Shown: positions 2 through 24,000 of the stretch, one piece after another
Layout of the letters: every line of letters starts with the position of its first letter
Numbering within the stretch: the stretch's first letter is position 1
Assembly: GCA_016211195.1 (NCBI GenBank)
Contig: JACQSS010000016.1
Coordinates: 3,475-27,474, forward strand
Reading direction: 5' to 3'
DNA from: Candidatus Woesearchaeota archaeon
GTDB taxonomy: Archaea; Nanobdellota; Nanobdellia; Woesearchaeales; JAGVYF01
DNA: 24,000 nt
Notes under the pieces: model-generated
Databases searched by the model: none
What the model was told of the DNA's origin: nothing
Seen by the model: only the letters and a program-made list of their open reading frames with translations
Made by a program: the position numbers and the translations under genes

Positions 2-502
2 GATTTCACGGCAAACCCGGGCTGGCGTCAAAACCAAAATCCTTGGTGGTCACTAGCTGCATTAGGCACCCATTGCATTGACTTGGCTGGGTGGCTGCTT
101 GGGTATGATGATGTCAAAAACATTGTCTGCTCAACAAGCAATACACGATTTGGCAGCAATGATGAGGAAGCATTGCTCGCATTCAGACTCGGGCATACGT
201 CGGTGGAAATCTATACCTCTGTGCTCTACAAAGCACCATACCAATTAGACATCTATGGCACCAAAGGAAGTGCACACGCGACATGGACATTGGGCCCGCG
301 CGGAGGGGGAACCATTACCATTAATGGAAACCCGCTTGCATTTGAGCAGCGTAACCCCTACGCAGAGCAATTGCGTGCGTTACAGCGACAGATACAAGGA
401 GAGAAAACAGCATTGGCAACACTGGGCCAAGGTATCTGGAATGTCCGGCTGATGGAAGCTGCTTACAGAAACAATTTTCTAAATCGCCCAATGGCATCCT
501 GA
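2..502 (+). CDS. Gfo/Idh/MocA-family oxidoreductase, C-terminal part (5' end lies outside the window)
   Basis: The frame is open from nt 2 with no stop. The translation DFTANPGWRQNQNPWWSLAALGTHCIDLAGWLLGYDD... matches the conserved GxHxIDxxxWLLG region of the C-terminal domain of this family. The ORF-track start at 83 is only a TTG inside the longer frame. Confidence 0.7.
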   Translation, partial: DFTANPGWRQNQNPWWSLAALGTHCIDLAGWLLGYDDVKNIVCSTSNTRFGSNDEEALLAFRLGHTSVEIYTSVLYKAPYQLDIYGTKGSAHATWTLGPRGGGTITINGNPLAFEQRNPYAEQLRALQRQIQGEKTALATLGQGIWNVRLMEAAYRNNFLNRPMAS

Positions 503-1659
503 ATCACAGGGACTGGGGTCGTTGAGAAAGATAACCGGATATTGTCGCCAAAGCCTTTTCCAAAGCAAGAACCATAGACTGTGGCGATGCCATGTTCCAT
601 CAGCAGGTTGAAGATGTACTTATCATGCTCGACGCCCTTTGGGATGTGTCGCCCGAAATTGGGGAACATATAGAACGCGCCTTCCGGTTTCTGAACATCT
701 ATTCCTGACGCACGAAGGCCATCATAGAGTACGTCTCTGCGTGCCTTGAACTCAGTGACCATTGCAGTGACAGCCTTTGCCTCCTCTTCCCTATTGTCTA
801 ATGCTTCCTTCCCTGCATATTGAAGGAAGGTTGCAACCCCCGCGGTCTGGCTGTAGTTGCCCAGTTTCACCAATTGGGAAATCCTCGGATGTCGGGTCAC
901 AAGGTAACCGAGACGCCAACCAGTCATGGCATACGTTTTTGACAAGGTAAAACAGGAGATGATATTTTCAAGATCAATGGCAGATGCGCTGAAATGCTTG
1001 CCTTCATACACAATGCGTTCATATGCTTCGTCTGCAAGCAGATAGACACCATTCCTATAACAGAGATCAGCAATTTTCCTTGTCTCCTCTTCCTTGAAGA
1101 CTTTACCCGTTGGATTATGCGGCGAGTTGTAATAAAAGAACCGGATACCGCTCTTGAGAACAGGCTCAAGTGTTTTCCAGTCTATTGAAAAGTCTTCCCT
1201 GAGCGGAACTTCGGTGAAGTCCACTTCTGTGTAGGGAGCAAAATTTTCCAGAGCACAACTCCAGCACGGGGAGAAGCCAGCACCACGCTCTCCGCGGAAA
1301 AGATTGAACGAGAGTTGCAGTGCCTCCTGCCCTGCATAGGTCACCACAATATCTGATAATGACAGACCATTTGCGCCGTTGATGTCGTGGAGTTTCCGCA
1401 GGATAGCCTCCTTGAACGGGACCTCTCCACCGGATAATGGATACTTTGTCCGGTTGTCATCCAACGCTTTCCGGGCAGCATCTTTGATATATTGCGGAGT
1501 CGGGAAATCCACTTCGCCGCGCTGAAATAGGATGAAATCTTTTCCCGTCCTCATGCGGAACTCATTGGCTTTTGTCTTGACCAGTTCGCTGATGCTCACG
1601 ATGGGAGACATCCCGACGTTTTCCATGGACCGGCTGAAGATATCGTTTGCGAATGTCAT
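463..1659 (-). CDS. Class I/II PLP-dependent aminotransferase (aspartate/aromatic aminotransferase-like)
   Basis: Carries the PLP-lysine signature SKTYAMTGWRLGY and the NSPHNPTGKV motif, at about 400 aa. I set the start to ATG 1659 (MTFAND...) because a minus-strand TATA (TTTAATAAA, plus coordinates 1682-1690) lies 22 nt upstream. The longer ORF to 1707 would start upstream of that TATA. Confidence 0.85.
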   Translation of the reverse strand: MTFANDIFSRSMENVGMSPIVSISELVKTKANEFRMRTGKDFILFQRGEVDFPTPQYIKDAARKALDDNRTKYPLSGGEVPFKEAILRKLHDINGANGLSLSDIVVTYAGQEALQLSFNLFRGERGAGFSPCWSCALENFAPYTEVDFTEVPLREDFSIDWKTLEPVLKSGIRFFYYNSPHNPTGKVFKEEETRKIADLCYRNGVYLLADEAYERIVYEGKHFSASAIDLENIISCFTLSKTYAMTGWRLGYLVTRHPRISQLVKLGNYSQTAGVATFLQYAGKEALDNREEEAKAVTAMVTEFKARRDVLYDGLRASGIDVQKPEGAFYMFPNFGRHIPKGVEHDKYIFNLLMEHGIATVYGSCFGKGFGDNIRLSFSTTPVPVIQDAIGRFRKLFL

Positions 1660-1721
1660 ACAGAGCAACGCTGAATTATTGTTTATTAAAGTGTGGTGCA
1701 GAACCATCTTCTACAGCATCC

Positions 1722-1885
1722 GGCTCCATTGAAAAGTTCCTCCGCTTGCGCTCCGTGGCCATCGATTCGCATTGAGGGTAATTAAGTAATGACAAAAATT
1801 CCTCTTGTAATCCCTTTTTTGCTTGCAAGAGAAGGAAACCAATGCTCACATAATTGATGGCTATCATGAAATTTTCAATGTGACC
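1722..1885 (+). mobile_element. MITE copy 1 (164 bp), flanked by the 8-bp direct repeat CAGCATCC (1714-1721 and 1886-1893)
   Basis: Left end is GGCTCCATTGAAAAGTTCC and right end is GAAATTTTCAATGTGACC, which are inverted repeats. It is near-identical to the copies at 9332-9495 and 23344-23506 except for a central stretch of about 30 nt. A perfect 8-bp duplication sits immediately outside both ends. Confidence 0.85.
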
Positions 1886-1896
1886 CAGCATCCAAA

Positions 1897-1905
1897 AGTA
1901 TTAAG
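1897..1905 (+). promoter_or_regulatory. TATA box (AGTATTAAG) with an A-rich BRE position, promoter of the 1930 gene
   Basis: AT-rich octamer 24 nt upstream of ATG 1930. This geometry recurs at at least 10 other first genes in the window. Confidence 0.45.
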
Positions 1906-1929
1906 AACAGATGAGCCTATCCCAAGCAC

Positions 1930-2763
1930 ATGGCACAATATCTTATCTTTGGCAATGGATGGATAGGAAATAAGTTTACTGCGTCTCTCCCAGATGCAGC
2001 ACTGTCACGCGCAGACATTACCAATAAGCAAGCAGTTCACGAAGCCATCGAAGAACATAATCCCAACATAGTCATCAACTGCGCAGGCAAAACCGGACGC
2101 CCGAATGTCGACTGGTGTGAAGATCATCAACGGGAAACATACCTCGCCAATGTGGTTGGACCGATGACATTAAGGGATGCATGCCTGGAACAGAAAGTGC
2201 ATTTTGTCCATGTTGGGTCTGGCTGTGTCTATGAAGGGGACAACAATGGTCATGGCTTTGCAGAAGACGATCTCCCGAATTATTTTGGCAGTTATTACAG
2301 CAAGACAAAAATCTGGGCAGAGGAAGCGCTTGCACAATATCCAGTACTGCAACTGCGGTTGCGCATGCCTGTTGACAAGGGACCGCACGACCGCAACCTT
2401 ATCACCAAACTCGTCAAATACCAGCGTGTCATCAATGTCCAAAACTCATTGAGCATTATTGACGATTTTCTTTACGCAGGTAAATGTCTTATGGAAAAAG
2501 GCTGCACAGGAATTTATAATATCACGAATCCAGGGGCAATGGGGCATGCACGTCTCCTTACTATTTATCAGGAGATTGTTGACCCGACATTTACATTTAC
2601 AGTAATGCCGCTCACTGAGCTCATGACCAAGGTAAAGACTGGGAGATCAAATTGTGTCCTCAGCACAAAGAAACTGGCGCATCATGTGACGCTGGATCCC
2701 ATAGAAACAGCAATGAGAAAATGTCTTGAGCATTACAAACAGGTCATTGATGCTCGGAAATAG
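1930..2763 (+). CDS. NAD(P)-dependent nucleotide-sugar 3,5-epimerase/4-reductase of the NRS/ER (UER1) / RmlD-like type (rhamnose pathway)
   Basis: A long run of motifs is shared with plant NRS/ER as I recall it: AGKTGRPNVDWCEDH, GSGCVYEGD, PNYFGSYYSKTK, LRLRMP, RNLITKL, TGIYNITNPG, DPTFTF and GRSNCVLSTKKL. The N-terminus has the glycine-rich FGNGWIG. Confidence 0.8.
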   Translation: MAQYLIFGNGWIGNKFTASLPDAALSRADITNKQAVHEAIEEHNPNIVINCAGKTGRPNVDWCEDHQRETYLANVVGPMTLRDACLEQKVHFVHVGSGCVYEGDNNGHGFAEDDLPNYFGSYYSKTKIWAEEALAQYPVLQLRLRMPVDKGPHDRNLITKLVKYQRVINVQNSLSIIDDFLYAGKCLMEKGCTGIYNITNPGAMGHARLLTIYQEIVDPTFTFTVMPLTELMTKVKTGRSNCVLSTKKLAHHVTLDPIETAMRKCLEHYKQVIDARK

Positions 2764-6410: not shown

Positions 6411-6957
6411 TTTTGTATTTCGGTGTTTCGCCGTAGGGTTCAAAGCCCGTTCCACGGGGCAATTTTTCTGCCCCCGCCAGCACATCGACCACATAGGTGC
6501 CGGATGCCAATGACTTACCCACTTCCACACCAAGGGCAAAGTTCCTGCTTTTGTCAGGAGAAATTGACTCGATACGTTCCTGCCCTGCTGCTGGCAGCAG
6601 GAACAGCTCATGTCCTTCAGTACCAAATTTCGGATCTATTTGACTGTTGACTGCCCCATTTGGCACGATAGTGACCTTGAATTTTCGTTCTTCAGCAAAA
6701 ATATTGAGAATCCGAACACCATAGGCATCGTACTCCCCCCGTCGTATTGTCTTTGTTTTATCACCGATGCAGACCTGTTCTGTGCCGCAGCGCAACGTCC
6801 CTATTTGACGATCAAGGTCTTCAAAGGTCCGTTGCTGCAAGCCAGTTGCTTTGCCGTAAATATTCATGATGAAATTGATGGAAAACCCGAAAATAACGAG
6901 TGAAAGGACAATAATAACCAGAAAGTTCATCGAAAGCTCAATGGCTTTCCTGTTCAT
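6391..6957 (-). CDS. Archaeal type IV pilin-like protein (class III signal peptide)
   Basis: The N-terminus MNRKA/IELSMNFLVIIVLSLVIFGF has a basic residue plus small residue, then a hydrophobic helix. The C-terminal region parallels the 8023 gene (SGTYVVDV versus SGVYICTV). An ATGA overlap links it to the upstream gene. Confidence 0.65.
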   Translation of the reverse strand: MNRKAIELSMNFLVIIVLSLVIFGFSINFIMNIYGKATGLQQRTFEDLDRQIGTLRCGTEQVCIGDKTKTIRRGEYDAYGVRILNIFAEERKFKVTIVPNGAVNSQIDPKFGTEGHELFLLPAAGQERIESISPDKSRNFALGVEVGKSLASGTYVVDVLAGAEKLPRGTGFEPYGETPKYKIIVVVP

Positions 6958-7754
6958 GACAGTTCCCCGGACTCAATGAATGCGACGCGATCGGGCAAGT
7001 CGTATTCAATTGTTCCTGTCTTTGGCACTTCTCTGAATTCGGTCGCTGAAATTTTATCATGGCGGGTAAAGCCATAATCCACGCGCATGGTGACGCTCGC
7101 CAACAATTCCCGGCCCGGCACTGTCTGTAAGGCTAAAGGAATATCGAAAACGCGGGGCTGACGCAATTCCTTCAAGAAGACATTATTGAGCCGCTTCTCA
7201 GCCAGCCTATCTTTGGAAAAGAAACTGATTTGATAGACCTCCAAGCCTCGGTCTGGAGCAACATCCTGCGCTAACTCGATGAGCTGCAGCGTGACACTGA
7301 ACTTGTCTTTCTTCTTCAAGTCCATGGGTTCGGTGTAATCAACCTTTATCTTCATCTTGCCGAATGCAGTCTCCCGTTCTACTTCCCGTAACTGGCGCGG
7401 TGTTTGGACCTTGACACCGATCGTGCATTTTCTGGTTGTATCATCGCAAAACAAGGTAAGGACTTTTGCATCTTCTGGTTTCTGGCCTGGCTTTTCAACT
7501 TTATACTTCCCTTCGCATTTCGGTGTCTTGCAATCCTCTGGGCAACTGCAGACACTCTCCTCAGCAGTTTTCTCGCACAGACCATTGCCGCATTCCTTGG
7601 GGATGGGTGAATAGGTACATTTCCCGTCAACGCAGGCCGCCTTCTGGTGCTCTTTCTGTGAGCAGTCCGTAACAGATGTACATTCCGGTGCTTCGCAACC
7701 CATGATGAGAAAAGCAAGCGCAACAATCACCAGAAGAATATATCGGCTCACCAT
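6954..7754 (-). CDS. Cysteine-rich secreted or lipoprotein-like surface protein
   Basis: Has an N-terminal signal or anchor ending in the lipobox-like LIMGC. A Cys-dense module follows, including ECGNGLCEKTAEESVCSCPEDC. Start is set to ATG 7754 (GGTGGGAG SD upstream), with ATG 7775 as an alternative. Confidence 0.6.
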   Translation of the reverse strand: MVSRYILLVIVALAFLIMGCEAPECTSVTDCSQKEHQKAACVDGKCTYSPIPKECGNGLCEKTAEESVCSCPEDCKTPKCEGKYKVEKPGQKPEDAKVLTLFCDDTTRKCTIGVKVQTPRQLREVERETAFGKMKIKVDYTEPMDLKKKDKFSVTLQLIELAQDVAPDRGLEVYQISFFSKDRLAEKRLNNVFLKELRQPRVFDIPLALQTVPGRELLASVTMRVDYGFTRHDKISATEFREVPKTGTIEYDLPDRVAFIESGELS

Positions 7755-7796
7755 CTCATCTCCCACCACAGCCATAATTATAAGCCTTTTGGTGAG

Positions 7797-8012
7797 TTAC
7801 TTGAAGACTTCATACTCTTTCACGATGATAATCATGAAGATGAAGAGGACGACTGCACCGGCAATCATGTAATAAAGACCGTCTGCCACATTGTCTCCGC
7901 TCAGCATGAAGTAGAGTCCAAATGCCATGATGCCAAAACCGAGCCAGAGAAATTTGTCCAGCACCAGTTTCATAATCTCAAATTCCTGTTGTTGGGACAT
8001 GCGTCGTTTCAT
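7797..8012 (-). CDS. Small two-TM membrane protein (71 aa)
   Basis: Two hydrophobic helices (FLWLGFGIMAFGLYFML and YYMIAGAVVLFIFMIIIV). ATG 8012 is preceded by GGTGATC. The ORF-track start at 8021 is a GTG. Confidence 0.55.
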   Translation of the reverse strand: MKRRMSQQQEFEIMKLVLDKFLWLGFGIMAFGLYFMLSGDNVADGLYYMIAGAVVLFIFMIIIVKEYEVFK

Positions 8013-8574: not shown

Positions 8575-8617
8575 GCGATACACCTCTTTTGCACTGTGTC
8601 TCTCTACAGCTTCGAGC

Positions 8618-8648
8618 TTTATAAACCTTTTGGTGAATGCTTTTATAG
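8618..8648. promoter_or_regulatory. Divergent promoter pair: TTTATAAA (8618-8625) for the pilin-like operon and TTTTATAG (8641-8648) for the 8671 gene
   Basis: The second TATA lies 22 nt before ATG 8671. The first is palindromic and lies about 44 nt before ATG 8574, leaving room for the SD-containing leader. Confidence 0.45.
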
Positions 8649-9213: not shown

Positions 9214-9331
9214 ACCACTTTCTGCGGGACGTGAGGTACTTTTTGATAGATACCGTGTAGAGAACTACGACGAGCGCGAAGCGAGAGTACTGCTCTAACC
9301 CAAGTGAGCGTAGCCTCTTCAAGGGCTGCCC

Positions 9332-9495
9332 GGTCCCATTGAAAAGTTCCTCTGCTTGCGCTCCGTGGCCATCGGTTCGCATGTGCTTTTGCCTGTTAAT
9401 GGCAAAAAATCCTCTTGGAATCCCCTTTTTGCTTGCAAGAGAAGGAAGCCAATACTCACATAATTGATGGTCACCATGAACTTTTCAATGCGACC
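9332..9495 (+). mobile_element. MITE copy 2 (164 bp), flanked by the perfect 8-bp direct repeat GGCTGCCC (9324-9331 and 9496-9503)
   Basis: Left end is GGTCCCATTGAAAAGTTCC. The reverse-complemented right end is GGTCGCATTGAAAAGTTC, matching 17 of 18. It has the same length and orientation as copy 1. Confidence 0.88.
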
Positions 9496-9508
9496 GGCTG
9501 CCCAAAAC

Positions 9509-9516
9509 ATTTATGA
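9509..9516 (+). promoter_or_regulatory. TATA box (ATTTATGA), promoter of the 9539 gene
   Basis: Lies 22 nt upstream of ATG 9539 and is preceded by the purine-rich AAAAC. Confidence 0.4.
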
Positions 9517-9538
9517 ATGGATCATGAACATTGTTCTT

Positions 9539-10747
9539 ATGGCCGATTGGGATCCACGGGATTTAGAAAAAAGGAATTTGGAGGCTTATATTCTGGCGAA
9601 TGGCCCAATGGGGTTAGTACAAGGTTTGTTTTATAGGGATGATGCCATTGCACGAGTACTGGCAGAACAAAGTCATCCTGGACACGAACCTCTCAAGAAA
9701 TCTTTAATGGATGTCCTTATCGGTGAAAACCCTGCTATGTACCTTAAGAAGCAGGCTGTTGCTGCATCGGTGGATGCAATCCCGCCAAAAGCAGAGCATG
9801 GATTTCTACCGGTGGCCGTTAAAGCATCTGCTGGAATGGACCAACAAATAGCAGCGGTTAGATTTTTGGCCCCACTGTCAGCTCATAATGATGCTGTTTA
9901 TCACCGTCTTTGGAAAGTTGCTCGAGGGGATACCTCTCAAATGATAAATGTGCGTAACGCTGCCATGAAGTCATTATCGTATCAGGCATTTCCTGCCAGA
10001 AAACGCGACCTAAAACAAGTTGCGCTTAATCCGACTCGTAAAGATGTGGACAGAATTCTTGCCTATAAGATCATGGCCGGAGCCGCAATGTTTACTGACC
10101 CGGAAGTTTATGGGCTTGTTTGTAAAATTGCTTCAGATGAAAGCATAAGGGAATTATATAAAAAGCGAAGAATTTTAGCACCATCTGCGCGATTCTGGTT
10201 TACCGCTGATATGAAGCTTAGAAGAGAATATCCAGATCAACATCGGGATGGAAAAAGCGAGGCCGAAGTTAAATTCGCTGTCGTTGAAAAAGTGCAGAAG
10301 GAATTTCAGGAAAGTTTGTTTGAGGTCATTAATCATGTTTTGGAAGCAACGTACTGCGTAGATTTACACAATAATGTCGTGGTTATGAACGGACTTCAAA
10401 ATGGCTTTCCCCATACATCTCAAACTTTAACAAAAGAACTTTGTCGCCTAATTGTACAAGATCCATCCTATCACGTACAGAATCTCTGCAAATATGCAGA
10501 AAAGATGAGAGCGATTTCTAAACAAGAGGCGGAACATATTGTAGAGACACTTGAGCAAGTGAAACCACATTTTGAAAGGGTTGACCACGCTAGCCGAAGC
10601 TGGATTGATGTGACTCTTAACGAAGTTACGTATCGATTACGCAAAAAAGAAGATGGTTACATGGATAGACTCTACCTTGATAAGATCTGGAAAGGTGAAT
10701 TAACCCCAGAGCAAATCATTTCTTCAAGACAAATTTACCAGATTTGA
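9539..10747 (+). CDS. Hypothetical protein (402 aa), N-terminal HEAT/ARM-like repeats possible, low-GC gene
   Basis: Long clean ORF. The start at 9539 fits the TATA spacing, whereas the ORF-track ATGs at 9464-9488 lie inside the MITE. The VRNAAMKSLS and QIAAVRFLAPL stretches are HEAT-like. Two 60-nt lines inside the gene give 37% GC by spot count. Confidence 0.6.
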   Translation: MADWDPRDLEKRNLEAYILANGPMGLVQGLFYRDDAIARVLAEQSHPGHEPLKKSLMDVLIGENPAMYLKKQAVAASVDAIPPKAEHGFLPVAVKASAGMDQQIAAVRFLAPLSAHNDAVYHRLWKVARGDTSQMINVRNAAMKSLSYQAFPARKRDLKQVALNPTRKDVDRILAYKIMAGAAMFTDPEVYGLVCKIASDESIRELYKKRRILAPSARFWFTADMKLRREYPDQHRDGKSEAEVKFAVVEKVQKEFQESLFEVINHVLEATYCVDLHNNVVVMNGLQNGFPHTSQTLTKELCRLIVQDPSYHVQNLCKYAEKMRAISKQEAEHIVETLEQVKPHFERVDHASRSWIDVTLNEVTYRLRKKEDGYMDRLYLDKIWKGELTPEQIISSRQIYQI

Positions 10748-17113: not shown

Positions 17114-17180
17114 ATTCTAGCCCTTCACCAAAAACTATAAATAGTGCCGACTGCATGAATAAAACGGGGGTTGAGAGAGC

Positions 17181-22625: not shown

Positions 22626-23354
22626 ATGACCATCGAGATGGAACTGCGCGGCCTTGATTTTACAGATAATGAAATAAAGGTGTATATTACCCTGCTTCGG
22701 ATTGGGAGCGTACGAGCGGGCAAATTAGCGCAAGAGTGCCGCCTGGAAAGAACAAGTACATATAACGCATTAAAACGGTTGAGCCAGCAGGGATTGGTGT
22801 CAACAGTTACAGAAGCGAACAGGAAAGTATTCACTGCGGCTGAACCAGACAAGCTGATTGACATGTTTAAAGAAAAAGAAGAGCGTGCAGCCCTCCTCAT
22901 CCCCCAACTGGAACAATTGAAGAAATTTGAACGGGAAGTAGAAACAATCCAAAAATTTAGAGGGTTTGCCGGTATCAAAACAGTCTTGAATGATGTCCTC
23001 AGGACATGTTCTGCAGGAGGCGAATACCTTATCATGGGGTCAGAAGGACAACTCTCCGAGCGGATGCCGACCTATGCAAGGATTTTTGTGGCACGAAAGG
23101 ATCAGAAACGCATACGAGCAAGGATACTTATCCGTGAAGGGGTTGTTGCAACAGGAAATATCAGGAGCAAGTTTACAAAAGTCAGACATGTCCCTCAAGA
23201 GGTGATTTCTCCGGCAGTTACAAATATCTATGGAGACAAGATTGCTATCATTATCTGGTCAGAGACGCCTGAGGCCATCATTATCCACAATGCAGATACA
23301 GCCAAGACATACCGTTCTTATTTTGAATTCATGTGGAAACATGGGTCCCATTGA
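22626..23354 (+). CDS. trmB: TrmB-family transcriptional regulator, with its last 3 codons and stop supplied by the MITE
   Basis: The N-terminal winged HTH LDFTDNEIKVYITLLRIGSVRAGKLAQECRLERTSTYNALKRLSQQGLV is typical of TrmB. I set the start at ATG 22626, 22 nt after a TATA. The ORF-track start at 22425 runs through the divergent promoter and the neighbouring gene. Confidence 0.8.
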   Translation: MTIEMELRGLDFTDNEIKVYITLLRIGSVRAGKLAQECRLERTSTYNALKRLSQQGLVSTVTEANRKVFTAAEPDKLIDMFKEKEERAALLIPQLEQLKKFEREVETIQKFRGFAGIKTVLNDVLRTCSAGGEYLIMGSEGQLSERMPTYARIFVARKDQKRIRARILIREGVVATGNIRSKFTKVRHVPQEVISPAVTNIYGDKIAIIIWSETPEAIIIHNADTAKTYRSYFEFMWKHGSH

Positions 23355-23506
23355 AAAGTTCCTCCGCTTGCGCTCCATGGCCATCGGTTCGCATGTAACT
23401 CTTGTGGTAATAGCAAAAATTCCTCTTACAATCTCTTTTTTGCTTGCTCGAGTAACGAGTCAATGCTCATAGAATTGATGGCCATCGTGAACTTTTCAAT
23501 GGCGCT
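23344..23506 (+). mobile_element. MITE copy 3 (163 bp), flanked by the 8-bp repeat GAAACATG (23336-23343) / GAAGCATG (23507-23514), a 7 of 8 match
   Basis: The left end GGTCCCATTGAAAAGTTCC is identical to copy 2. The right end GAACTTTTCAATGGCGCT has a degenerate outermost 4-5 nt. The internal 3' subregion has diverged (CTCGAGTAACGAG hairpin). Confidence 0.8.
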
Positions 23507-23520
23507 GAAGCATGCAAAGG

Positions 23521-23528
23521 CATAAATA
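23521..23528 (+). promoter_or_regulatory. TATA box (CATAAATA), promoter of the PHP gene
   Basis: Lies 22 nt upstream of ATG 23551. It also contains the inferred ancestral TAA stop of trmB. Confidence 0.4.
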
Positions 23529-23550
23529 GCCGGAATTTCTACGGGACCGA

Positions 23551-24000
23551 ATGCTTAAAGCTGATTTCCACATGCACAGCAGTGAGGACCCTCTGGACTG
23601 GCCAGCTGTGAAGCACACTTCATTTCAGCTCGTCGATGAAGCTGCGCGGCTTGGCTATGAAGTGATCTCACTCACGCTTCATGAGACGCTACACTGCCCG
23701 AAGGAACTGCAGGACTATGCAAAGCGTAAGGGTCTTCTCCTCATTCCCGGCATGGAAGCCACTGTCGAAGGGAAGCACGTCCTTGTGCTTAATCCGCCAG
23801 AGGGCACCTGTAATCCCTCTACCTTTGAAAAGGTGGAAAAAGTAAAGGCAGAAGGTGCGTTAATCATTGCCGCGCACCCTTACTACCTCAAGTCATACTG
23901 CTTGGGTGAAAAGCTCCGTGAACACATACATCTTTTTGATGCAATTGAGCATTGCCATTTCTATACCAATTACTTAAACAGAAACAAGCAAGCGCTTTCC
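23551..24000 (+). CDS. PHP-domain metal-dependent phosphoesterase (3' end lies outside the window)
   Basis: I translated it by hand and the frame is open to the window end. It begins MLKADFHMHSSEDP (the PHP DxHxHS motif), then has GMEA and AAHP further on. It is absent from the ORF track because no stop lies in the window. Confidence 0.7.
   Translation, partial: MLKADFHMHSSEDPLDWPAVKHTSFQLVDEAARLGYEVISLTLHETLHCPKELQDYAKRKGLLLIPGMEATVEGKHVLVLNPPEGTCNPSTFEKVEKVKAEGALIIAAHPYYLKSYCLGEKLREHIHLFDAIEHCHFYTNYLNRNKQALS

Follow-up and report, generated by a model that had tools for sequence, protein, structure and literature searches.

Miniature transposable elements of DPANN-type archaea adjoin BRE/TATA core promoters at a fixed distance that points to targeted integration

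Introduction

Why would three copies of a repeated element in one archaeal sequence all stop at the same distance, to within 1 nt, from the gene that follows? The question is raised by a 24,000-nucleotide stretch of DNA from a Candidatus Woesearchaeota archaeon (the window), in which three transposable elements of the miniature inverted-repeat type (MITEs) each end immediately upstream of the TFB-recognition element (BRE) and the TATA box of a protein-coding gene. A first-pass annotation of the window had proposed that this placement reflects either integration directed by the promoter architecture or selection for an effect of the element on the promoter.

Here, we followed the element family from the window into metagenomes. 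The anatomy of the element, the fixed spacing, the one-sided BRE/TATA signal and the insertions inside the 3' ends of upstream genes can all be seen directly in the copies, and taken together they make it probable that integration is targeted at the upstream edge of the BRE/TATA core promoter.

Results

Three MITE copies in the window

The window contains three homologous repeats of 163-164 nt, all on the plus strand, with pairwise identities of 80-84%. Every copy opens with GGYYCCATTGAAAAGTTC and closes with the inverted copy of GGYYCCATTGAAAAGTTC, and each is bordered by an 8-bp target-site duplication (TSD). The copies, their TSDs and the promoter elements next to them are as follows:

1714..1721: left TSD of copy 1, CAGCATCC, identical to 1886-1893
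1722..1885, plus strand: MITE copy 1, 164 nt, without coding capacity, with the ends GGCTCCATTGAAAAGTTC ... GAAATTTTCAATGTGACC
1886..1893: right TSD of copy 1, CAGCATCC
1892..1906, plus strand: BRE-like CCAAAAG, then the TATA box TATTAAGA of the RmlD-like gene; the first 2 nt lie inside the TSD, and 27.5 nt separate the centre of the TATA box from the ATG
9324..9331: left TSD of copy 2, GGCTGCCC
9332..9495, plus strand: MITE copy 2, 164 nt
9496..9503: right TSD of copy 2, GGCTGCCC
9502..9516, plus strand: BRE-like CCAAAAC, then the TATA box ATTTATGA; the TATA centre is 26.5 nt before the ATG at 9539
23336..23343: left TSD of copy 3, GAAACATG, within the TrmB-like coding sequence
23344..23506, plus strand: MITE copy 3, 163 nt
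23507..23514: right TSD of copy 3, GAAGCATG, matching the left TSD at 7/8 positions
23514..23528, plus strand: BRE-like GCAAAGG, then the TATA box CATAAATA; contains the original TrmB-like stop codon TAA at 23523-23525

With inverted repeats, 8-bp TSDs, dispersed copies and no transposase gene, these repeats are MITEs. A minus-strand frame is open in two of them, and a protein database search with the translated frame of one copy returned no homologue. No known RNA family was found by Rfam anywhere in the window, the MITE copies included. Two independent Logan assemblies from run SRR12113385 confirmed the junctions of copies 2 and 3 outside the metagenome-assembled genome: one contig (L091, 1170-1197) ends inside copy 3 and the other (L096, 1-12) inside copy 2. 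Such breaks are typical at repeats and are consistent with a multicopy element in the source community.

Promoters and start codons next to the window copies

The genes that flank the three copies are listed below. Two window proteins were 100% identical to the database entries MBI4440869.1 (HY639_01760) and MBI4440887.1 (HY639_01850).

463..1658, minus strand: class I/II aminotransferase gene, divergent from MITE copy 1, probable start at 1658
1690-1682, minus strand: TATA box of the aminotransferase gene, TTTAATAAA; MITE copy 1 lies between two divergent promoters, against the right-hand one
1930..2763, plus strand: RmlD/epimerase-like gene with a leaderless start, 45 nt past the end of MITE copy 1
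9539..10747, plus strand: conserved hypothetical gene (MBI4440869.1, 402 aa), start 44 nt past the end of MITE copy 2
22626..23354, plus strand: TrmB-like regulator gene (MBI4440887.1), its 3' end altered by MITE copy 3
23551..24000, plus strand: gene with the PHP-like N-terminal motif MLKADFHMHS, extending beyond the window, start 45 nt past copy 3

Remeasurement gave the same distances from the right end of the MITE to the ATG as the first-pass annotation, namely, 45, 44 and 45 nt (1885 to 1930, 9495 to 9539 and 23506 to 23551). BRE-like purines followed by a TATA box were likewise found after every right TSD, with TATA centres 26.5-27.5 nt before the ATG.

The distances depend on the choice of start codons, and the start at 9539 had been considered the least certain. 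We found that 5/8 homologues begin within two alignment columns of 9539, that NCBI calls the same 402-aa protein and that an orthologue (L087) has its own TATA box about 30 nt before the equivalent ATG, all of which uphold this start. The start at 1930 is the first in the RmlD-like open reading frame (ORF), and the N terminus that it opens, MAQYLIFGNGWIG, is of the Rossmann type. The start at 23551 is the first that follows an in-frame stop codon, and its product opens with MLKADFHMHS; Pfam returned no match for the 149-aa fragment of this gene in the window.

The same arrangement, with a TATA centre at -25.5 to -27.5 and BRE-like purines just upstream, occurs at unrelated gene starts in the window (11863, 12437, 13362, 16433 and 22626 on the plus strand and 11775 and 20236 on the minus strand). 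Since at least seven other window genes have a TATA centre 25.5-27.5 nt before the ATG, the promoters beside the MITEs appear to be ordinary leaderless promoters.

It could be argued that the element itself carries or creates the BRE/TATA, as Correia elements do. Bacterial MITEs with outward-facing promoters are known (PMC10969869), and an A/T-rich ACATAATTGA stretch lies inside the element. However, the TSD stands between the inverted repeat and the BRE/TATA, which makes the promoter preexisting target DNA, and the flanks have a motif in common rather than a sequence. The flanks beyond the TSD are otherwise unrelated, which bears out the earlier view that the promoter is not part of the element. 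The proposed outward-facing TATA box within the element did not hold up: the ACATAATTGA stretch is not conserved across the family (CATATTGA, CTTTTTGA and CAAGTTGA in other copies) and belongs to an inner inverted repeat. A mobile promoter is thus extremely unlikely.

Relatives of the element in metagenomes

Metagenome assemblies were scanned with a pattern that consisted of the two inverted-repeat cores only, 114-144 nt apart. The scan returned 33 loci (designated by L numbers). After removal of duplicates, 16 loci contained a genuine relative at a distinct site, and one of them (L042) held one more copy, giving 17 relatives. Because the search pattern held no information on the flanks, these relatives form an unbiased test set for the position of the element.

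Each relative has GGCGTT outer ends and an inner box, and most have an 8-bp TSD. The 18-nt outer inverted repeat is present in all copies, with the family consensus GGCGTTATTGAAAAGTTC; the 12-nt repeat core pairs in 18/18 sequences, although this core was required by the search pattern. The TSD is perfect in 2/3 window copies and 10/17 metagenome copies, and most of the others match at 6-7 of the 8 positions. Copies measure 162-166 nt; the exceptions are the L035 copy (177 nt), a copy that carries an insert and a derivative of 62 nt. The copy with the insert (L042, 7373-7628) carries about 90 nt of additional internal sequence and still has a BRE/TATA-like motif beside one end. The derivative (L033, 8668-8729) consists of both end modules alone and has kept a BRE/TATA-like motif as well.

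The genes around the relatives are archaeal and include those for proteasome beta, an archaeal-type glycyl-tRNA synthetase (GlyRS), SecF and a Cbf5-like protein with an insert. The last is an 815-aa Cbf5/TruB-like pseudouridine synthase ORF that lies 153 nt past the TSD on the right flank of the other L042 copy (1279-1441), and its large internal insert looks like an intein.

Other searches added no relatives. Metagenomes scanned earlier for a 24-mer of the left end gave no match, a scan of one genome per species (GTDB) with a left-end 20-mer gave 16 matches, all 16 of them bacterial and due to chance, and two scans of viral contigs gave only an unrelated conserved phage gene and chance matches. 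Homologues of the genes beside copies 2 and 3 showed no conserved synteny, and no MITE was found in those relatives.

Fixed spacing between the TSD and the BRE/TATA

Offsets were counted outward from the outer edge of the TSD to the first ORF-opening start codon. In the window copies, the ATG lies at +36-37. Eight metagenome copies have an ATG at +36 to +38, located on the right in L018, L026 and L036, on the left in L027, L029, L046 and L049 (where the ORF extends beyond the contig end) and on both sides in L023. Overall, an ORF-opening ATG at +36 to +38 was found in 13/40 flanks, compared with 0.68% of the intergenic positions in the same loci (P ~7e-19); the metagenome flanks alone gave 9/34. 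The genes adjoining the promoter-side ends encode GlyRS, a ZIP transporter, PAP2, a MazG-like protein and a helix-turn-helix (HTH) protein, and these identifications indicate that the adjacent ORFs are real genes.

In four copies (L041, L042b, L035 and L032), the ATG lies farther away, at +46 to +61, behind a ribosome-binding sequence of the GGTGA/GAGG type. Since the position of the TATA box is unchanged in these four leadered copies, the spacing is keyed to the BRE/TATA and not to the ATG.

Alignment of 21 promoter-side flanks gave a logo with A, A/R, A and A at +1 to +4, TTTWWAAA at +7 to +14 and A-Y-C/A in the last three positions of the TSD. A occupies +1, +3 and +4 in 15-18 and T occupies +7 to +9 in 13-17 of these flanks, +10 and +11 are exclusively A or T, and +12 to +14 are mostly A. 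By its sequence, this motif reads as a BRE followed by a TATA box, the latter starting at +6/+7 after the TSD. Under a rigid BRE/TATA criterion, 8/34 independent flanks carried the motif, compared with 0.94% of intergenic positions (P ~9e-10).

The target determinant is one-sided. On the opposite flank, a relaxed TATA criterion was satisfied in 3/14 cases, against a background of 20%. A palindromic two-sided target consensus had also been considered and was rejected, the second flank being at background level.

The 17 independent relatives, apart from a degenerate copy in L019, thus showed the same TSD-to-BRE/TATA spacing as the window copies. The position of the element is nonrandom and tied to promoter architecture.

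Two loci deserve separate description. In L023 (3790-4100), the MITE lies exactly midway between divergent leaderless genes for GlyRS and a 79-aa zinc-ribbon protein, with each ATG 36 nt from the TSD; before the insertion, only 78 nt separated the two ATGs, and two promoters lay back to back in this interval. In L045 (approximately 9950-10040), the gene for proteasome beta is served by a leaderless promoter of its own, whose TATA box lies about 25 nt before the ATG, and the MITE adjoins a second BRE/TATA-like motif about 50 nt farther upstream, which may be a tandem or cryptic promoter.

Insertions at the ends of upstream genes

A nonrandom position could be produced without any target choice. 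If insertion were random and purifying selection removed every copy that hit coding sequence or a core promoter, the survivors would pile up just upstream of promoters. The intergenic spacers are indeed short: before insertion, that of copy 3 measured 25 nt and that of copy 1 measured about 99 nt with two promoters in it. Moreover, insertions that break a BRE/TATA must be removed by selection. Such a filter predicts a one-sided boundary with a tail reaching upstream. What we found instead is a peak 3 nt wide that holds the 13 flanks described above. Copy 2 adjoins the BRE and leaves about 110 nt of upstream spacer unused, and copy 1 adjoins the BRE with about 24 nt free between the two divergent promoters, assuming that the aminotransferase gene starts at 1658.

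Some insertions also reach into upstream genes. The left inverted repeat of copy 3 now provides the last three codons and the stop codon (TGA, 23352-23354) of the TrmB-like gene, and the C terminus of the protein reads ..FMWKHGSH (GSH in place of AKA). When copy 3 and one TSD were removed in silico, the C terminus became ..FMWKHAKA*, which fits the consensus ..FMWK[HN]AK.. derived from 23 homologues. Before the insertion, the stop codon was located in the TATA box of the downstream gene, and the promoter of that gene was wholly within the 3' coding end of the upstream gene. Similarly, the insertion in L018 removed the last six residues of a membrane-anchored protein of 541 aa, whose C terminus changed from ..NPNNQKIFKE* to ..NPNNRRY*; the ATG of the downstream gene lies at +36. 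In L044, the stop codon of the upstream gene forms the first bases of the TSD.

Copy 3 and the L018 copy thus disrupt the last 3-6 codons of the upstream genes (242 and 541 aa, respectively) and alter the ends of the proteins, the opposite of gene avoidance. Since these two copies lie in 3' coding ends, tolerance of intergenic insertions alone cannot explain the position. The narrow peak despite available room, together with the insertions inside upstream coding ends, suggested that the position was chosen and not merely tolerated, and we consider random insertion followed by purifying selection very unlikely as the explanation.

Orientation and internal features of the element

Orientation was assigned from MAFFT alignments and from the asymmetry of the end modules, which differ in the length of the spacer preceding the inner box (12-15 nt in one module, 0-3 nt in the opposite one). 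For subfamilies B-D, a hidden Markov model of the internal sequence gave no orientation, and the alignments and the end-module layout were used. Among the strictly scored one-sided copies, the promoter lies at the "right" end in seven (the three window copies, W1-3, and L018, L027, L029 and L046) and at the "left" end in three (L026, L036 and L049); in L023, promoters flank the element on both sides. With the window copies left out, the independent set has four right and three left. The shared orientation reported by the first-pass annotation therefore stands for the three window copies but does not extend to the family, and the agreement of all three in the window may come from subfamily membership or from chance.

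Alignment of all copies showed that the inverted repeat is bipartite, with an invariant outer module and an inner box of 5-10 nt. The two sides of the inner box covary between subfamilies (GTTGCCATC/GATGGCAAC, GCTACCAGC/GCTGGTAGC and others), with five pairs showing 2-7 double changes. This pattern makes the inner box look like a possible second module for transposase binding, not like a promoter. Each copy also has runs of T5-T6 and A5-A6 around a central hairpin, which could terminate read-through transcription in either direction. The terminal hexamer is nearer to the consensus GGCGTT on the promoter side in 10 copies and on the other side in 3, with 2 ties; the difference is not significant (sign test, p ~0.09) and could hint at an asymmetry of the ends or at selection on the promoter-proximal end.

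Some of these features would be expected if insertion were only loosely targeted and copies were kept for an action on the promoter, whether by shielding it from read-through in the manner of an insulator or terminator, by providing an upstream activating sequence or by distancing it from upstream regulators. The three window copies share one orientation, and in most copies of subfamilies A and B it is the same end that faces the promoter. The T and A runs would act as oligo-T termination signals facing both directions, and the gene upstream of copy 3, like that in L018, runs directly into the downstream promoter. The hexamer trend points the same way without reaching significance. On the other hand, the independent set contains both orientations (4 to 3), the host genes are of unrelated function, and an exact 1-nt spacing across divergent subfamilies and organisms follows more simply from a cut site than from repeated selection. 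Adaptive retention of this kind is not needed to account for the data, and we regard it as unlikely.

Other features of the window

The window belongs to a contig of 47.6 kb from an NCBI metagenome-assembled genome of a Candidatus Woesearchaeota archaeon. Its gene content is archaeal, including genes for an ELP3-type radical SAM/GNAT protein, TrmB, a YGR210-like GTPase and ribosomal protein L10e.

Three window genes have near-identical promoter sequences (7776-7800 and 8584-8640 on the minus strand and 17121-17180 on the plus strand), with CACCAAAAGG[C/T]TTATAA and CACCAAAAACTATAAATA in common. The ORF at 6954-7775 probably starts at the in-frame ATG that lies 21 nt downstream. The gene ending at 8583 seems to have a leader that carries a GAGGTG ribosome-binding site.

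Discussion

The results can be accommodated by a model in which the repeats are a nonautonomous DNA transposon family of DPANN-type archaea, with an 18-nt outer repeat, an inner box and an 8-bp staggered cut of the target. The core promoter would position a DDE-type transposase, supplied in trans, in such a way that the upstream edge of the BRE coincides with the end of the 8-bp duplication; counted from the transcription start, the TSD would span about -44 to -37. The TATA box would then begin 5-6 nt past the TSD, and a leaderless ATG would follow 36-38 nt past the TSD and 44-46 nt past the element. Duplication of the TSD would leave the native promoter intact from -44 downstream, and insertions would be tolerated for that reason. 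In very compact genomes, such tolerated insertion may amount to a safe-haven strategy.

Several observations weigh against this model of targeted integration. The assignment of the spacing to the integration step comes from surviving insertions only, and every transcription start was placed from TATA-to-ATG geometry. The sample comprises 20 copies, of which 10 come from two related samples. In four copies, the motif is present without a matching ORF (L033, on both sides, L044, L045 and L042a), and the degenerate copy in L019 lacks a clear motif. Comparison of the loci for approximate matches to the inverted repeat, for repeated DNA and for long ORFs with paralogues revealed neither a transposase nor an autonomous partner in any of them, and no empty orthologous site was present among the loci examined.

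How the promoter would be recognized is a separate matter. Recognition of DNA bent by bound TATA-binding protein (TBP) and transcription factor B (TFB) is slightly favored, because tethered systems typically have a determinant on one side, at a fixed distance, and by analogy with Ty3 and TFIIIB and with the proposal for TnGBS and sigma-A. Direct readout of the A-tract and TATA sequence by the transposase would fit the sequences equally well and is nearly as likely. The motif-only sites could reflect such direct readout or be cryptic promoters; a check of whether these flanks open tRNA genes found no tRNA in the loci or in the window. We tentatively propose, by analogy, that the transposase may be positioned by the archaeal preinitiation complex, i.e., by TBP/TFB on the BRE/TATA or by the bend that they induce, as a counterpart of the tethering of Ty3 by TFIIIB; this is a possibility to which we give somewhat less than even weight.

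Among known systems, the eukaryotic retroelements Ty3 and Ty1 and the Dictyostelium elements TRE5-A and DGLT-A target genes transcribed by RNA polymerase III, with the site set within 1-2 nt by TFIIIB, which contains TBP and Brf1 (a homologue of TFB/TFIIB), in a safe haven that spares coding sequence. In its sequence geometry, the MITE resembles Ty3: its site is fixed relative to a TBP-type promoter. Unlike the MITE, Ty3 is a eukaryotic retroelement with an integrase that inserts at the transcription start, and its tethering has been demonstrated; the MITE lies at about -37/-44, and its tethering is hypothesized. Targeting of the Ty3 type has been cited as an analogy for bacterial elements (PMC3942029).

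Those bacterial elements, the TnGBS integrative and conjugative elements (ICEs), ISLre2 and insertion sequences (ISs) of the ISKra4 group (p-MULT 3/4; Brochet 2009; Guerillot 2014), are Mutator-like DDE elements with 8-9-bp repeats that insert 13-17 bp upstream of sigma-A promoters (PMC3942029). Like these elements, the MITE is of the cut-and-paste type, with 8-bp repeats and a fixed short distance upstream of a promoter that is left intact. In the bacterial elements, orientation is set by the asymmetry of the inverted repeats, and near-perfect repeats lead to both orientations and sometimes to promoters on both sides (PMC3942029); the repeats of the MITE are near-symmetric, and both orientations occur with visible trends among subfamilies, although the numbers are small (7:3 overall and 4:3 in the independent set). 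For TnGBS and ISLre2, the initiation machinery has been proposed to take part in target recognition (PMC3942029). However, TnGBS and ISLre2 are bacterial and insert 13-17 bp from the -35 box of a sigma-A promoter, whereas the MITE targets an archaeal BRE/TATA with its TSD touching the BRE. TnGBS, ISLre2 and ISKra4 are also autonomous ISs or ICEs with a known transposase, while the family described here is known from the MITE alone. Because no transposase was found among the loci, we do not claim membership in p-MULT, whose promoter-targeting members have a DDE transposase with a signature motif between domains N1 and N2.

The archaeal p-MULT 2 element ISH6 makes an 8-bp AT-rich duplication, AANATNTT, and a bias toward promoters or intergenic DNA has been speculated for it (PMC3942029). 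The MITE is likewise archaeal with an 8-bp duplication. In contrast to ISH6, its TSDs are heterogeneous and often GC-rich (CAGCATCC, GGCTGCCC and GTGGGACA), and its conserved motif lies outside the TSD, on one side and at a fixed distance. Correia elements, the MITEs of Neisseria, are found mostly immediately upstream of genes and affect expression (PMC10969869). They differ from the MITE in duplicating TA, in carrying their own promoters and in having no fixed spacing to a host promoter element.

The ISH1 group of the IS5 family makes 8-bp duplications, and the bacterial IS903 makes 9-bp duplications and has a reported extended target preference. The inverted repeat of IS903, which we take to be GGCTTTGTTGAATAAATC, matches the MITE repeat at 13/18 positions, which is no more than a lead. 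A literature search with the inverted-repeat sequence gave only unrelated primer matches.

In the literature searched, we found no report of transposon integration beside the BRE/TATA in archaea or of promoter-adjacent targeting by a MITE, the nearest being the speculation on ISH6 (PMC3942029). Promoter-upstream targeting has been described in a few Mutator-like elements of bacteria and, next to promoters, in eukaryotic retroelements using RNA polymerase III factors; here it would operate at the archaeal BRE/TATA and for a MITE.

One Woesearchaeal genome is reported to contain 105 MITEs per Mb, among the highest densities in archaea (PMC11602168). If the spacing described here holds genome-wide, it would account for a high density of mobile DNA in tiny, gene-dense DPANN genomes without the killing of genes, and it would provide a testable system for the reading of a TBP/TFB-type promoter, a machinery ancestral to the eukaryotic one, by a transposase. 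The element ends would also serve as natural promoter markers of single-nucleotide precision, indicating true start codons and distinguishing leaderless from leadered transcripts in uncultured organisms that have no transcript maps. If positioning by the preinitiation complex is true, the ends would further mark the active promoters of uncultivated DPANN archaea at single-nucleotide resolution, and the system could become a promoter-seeking insertion tool for archaea.

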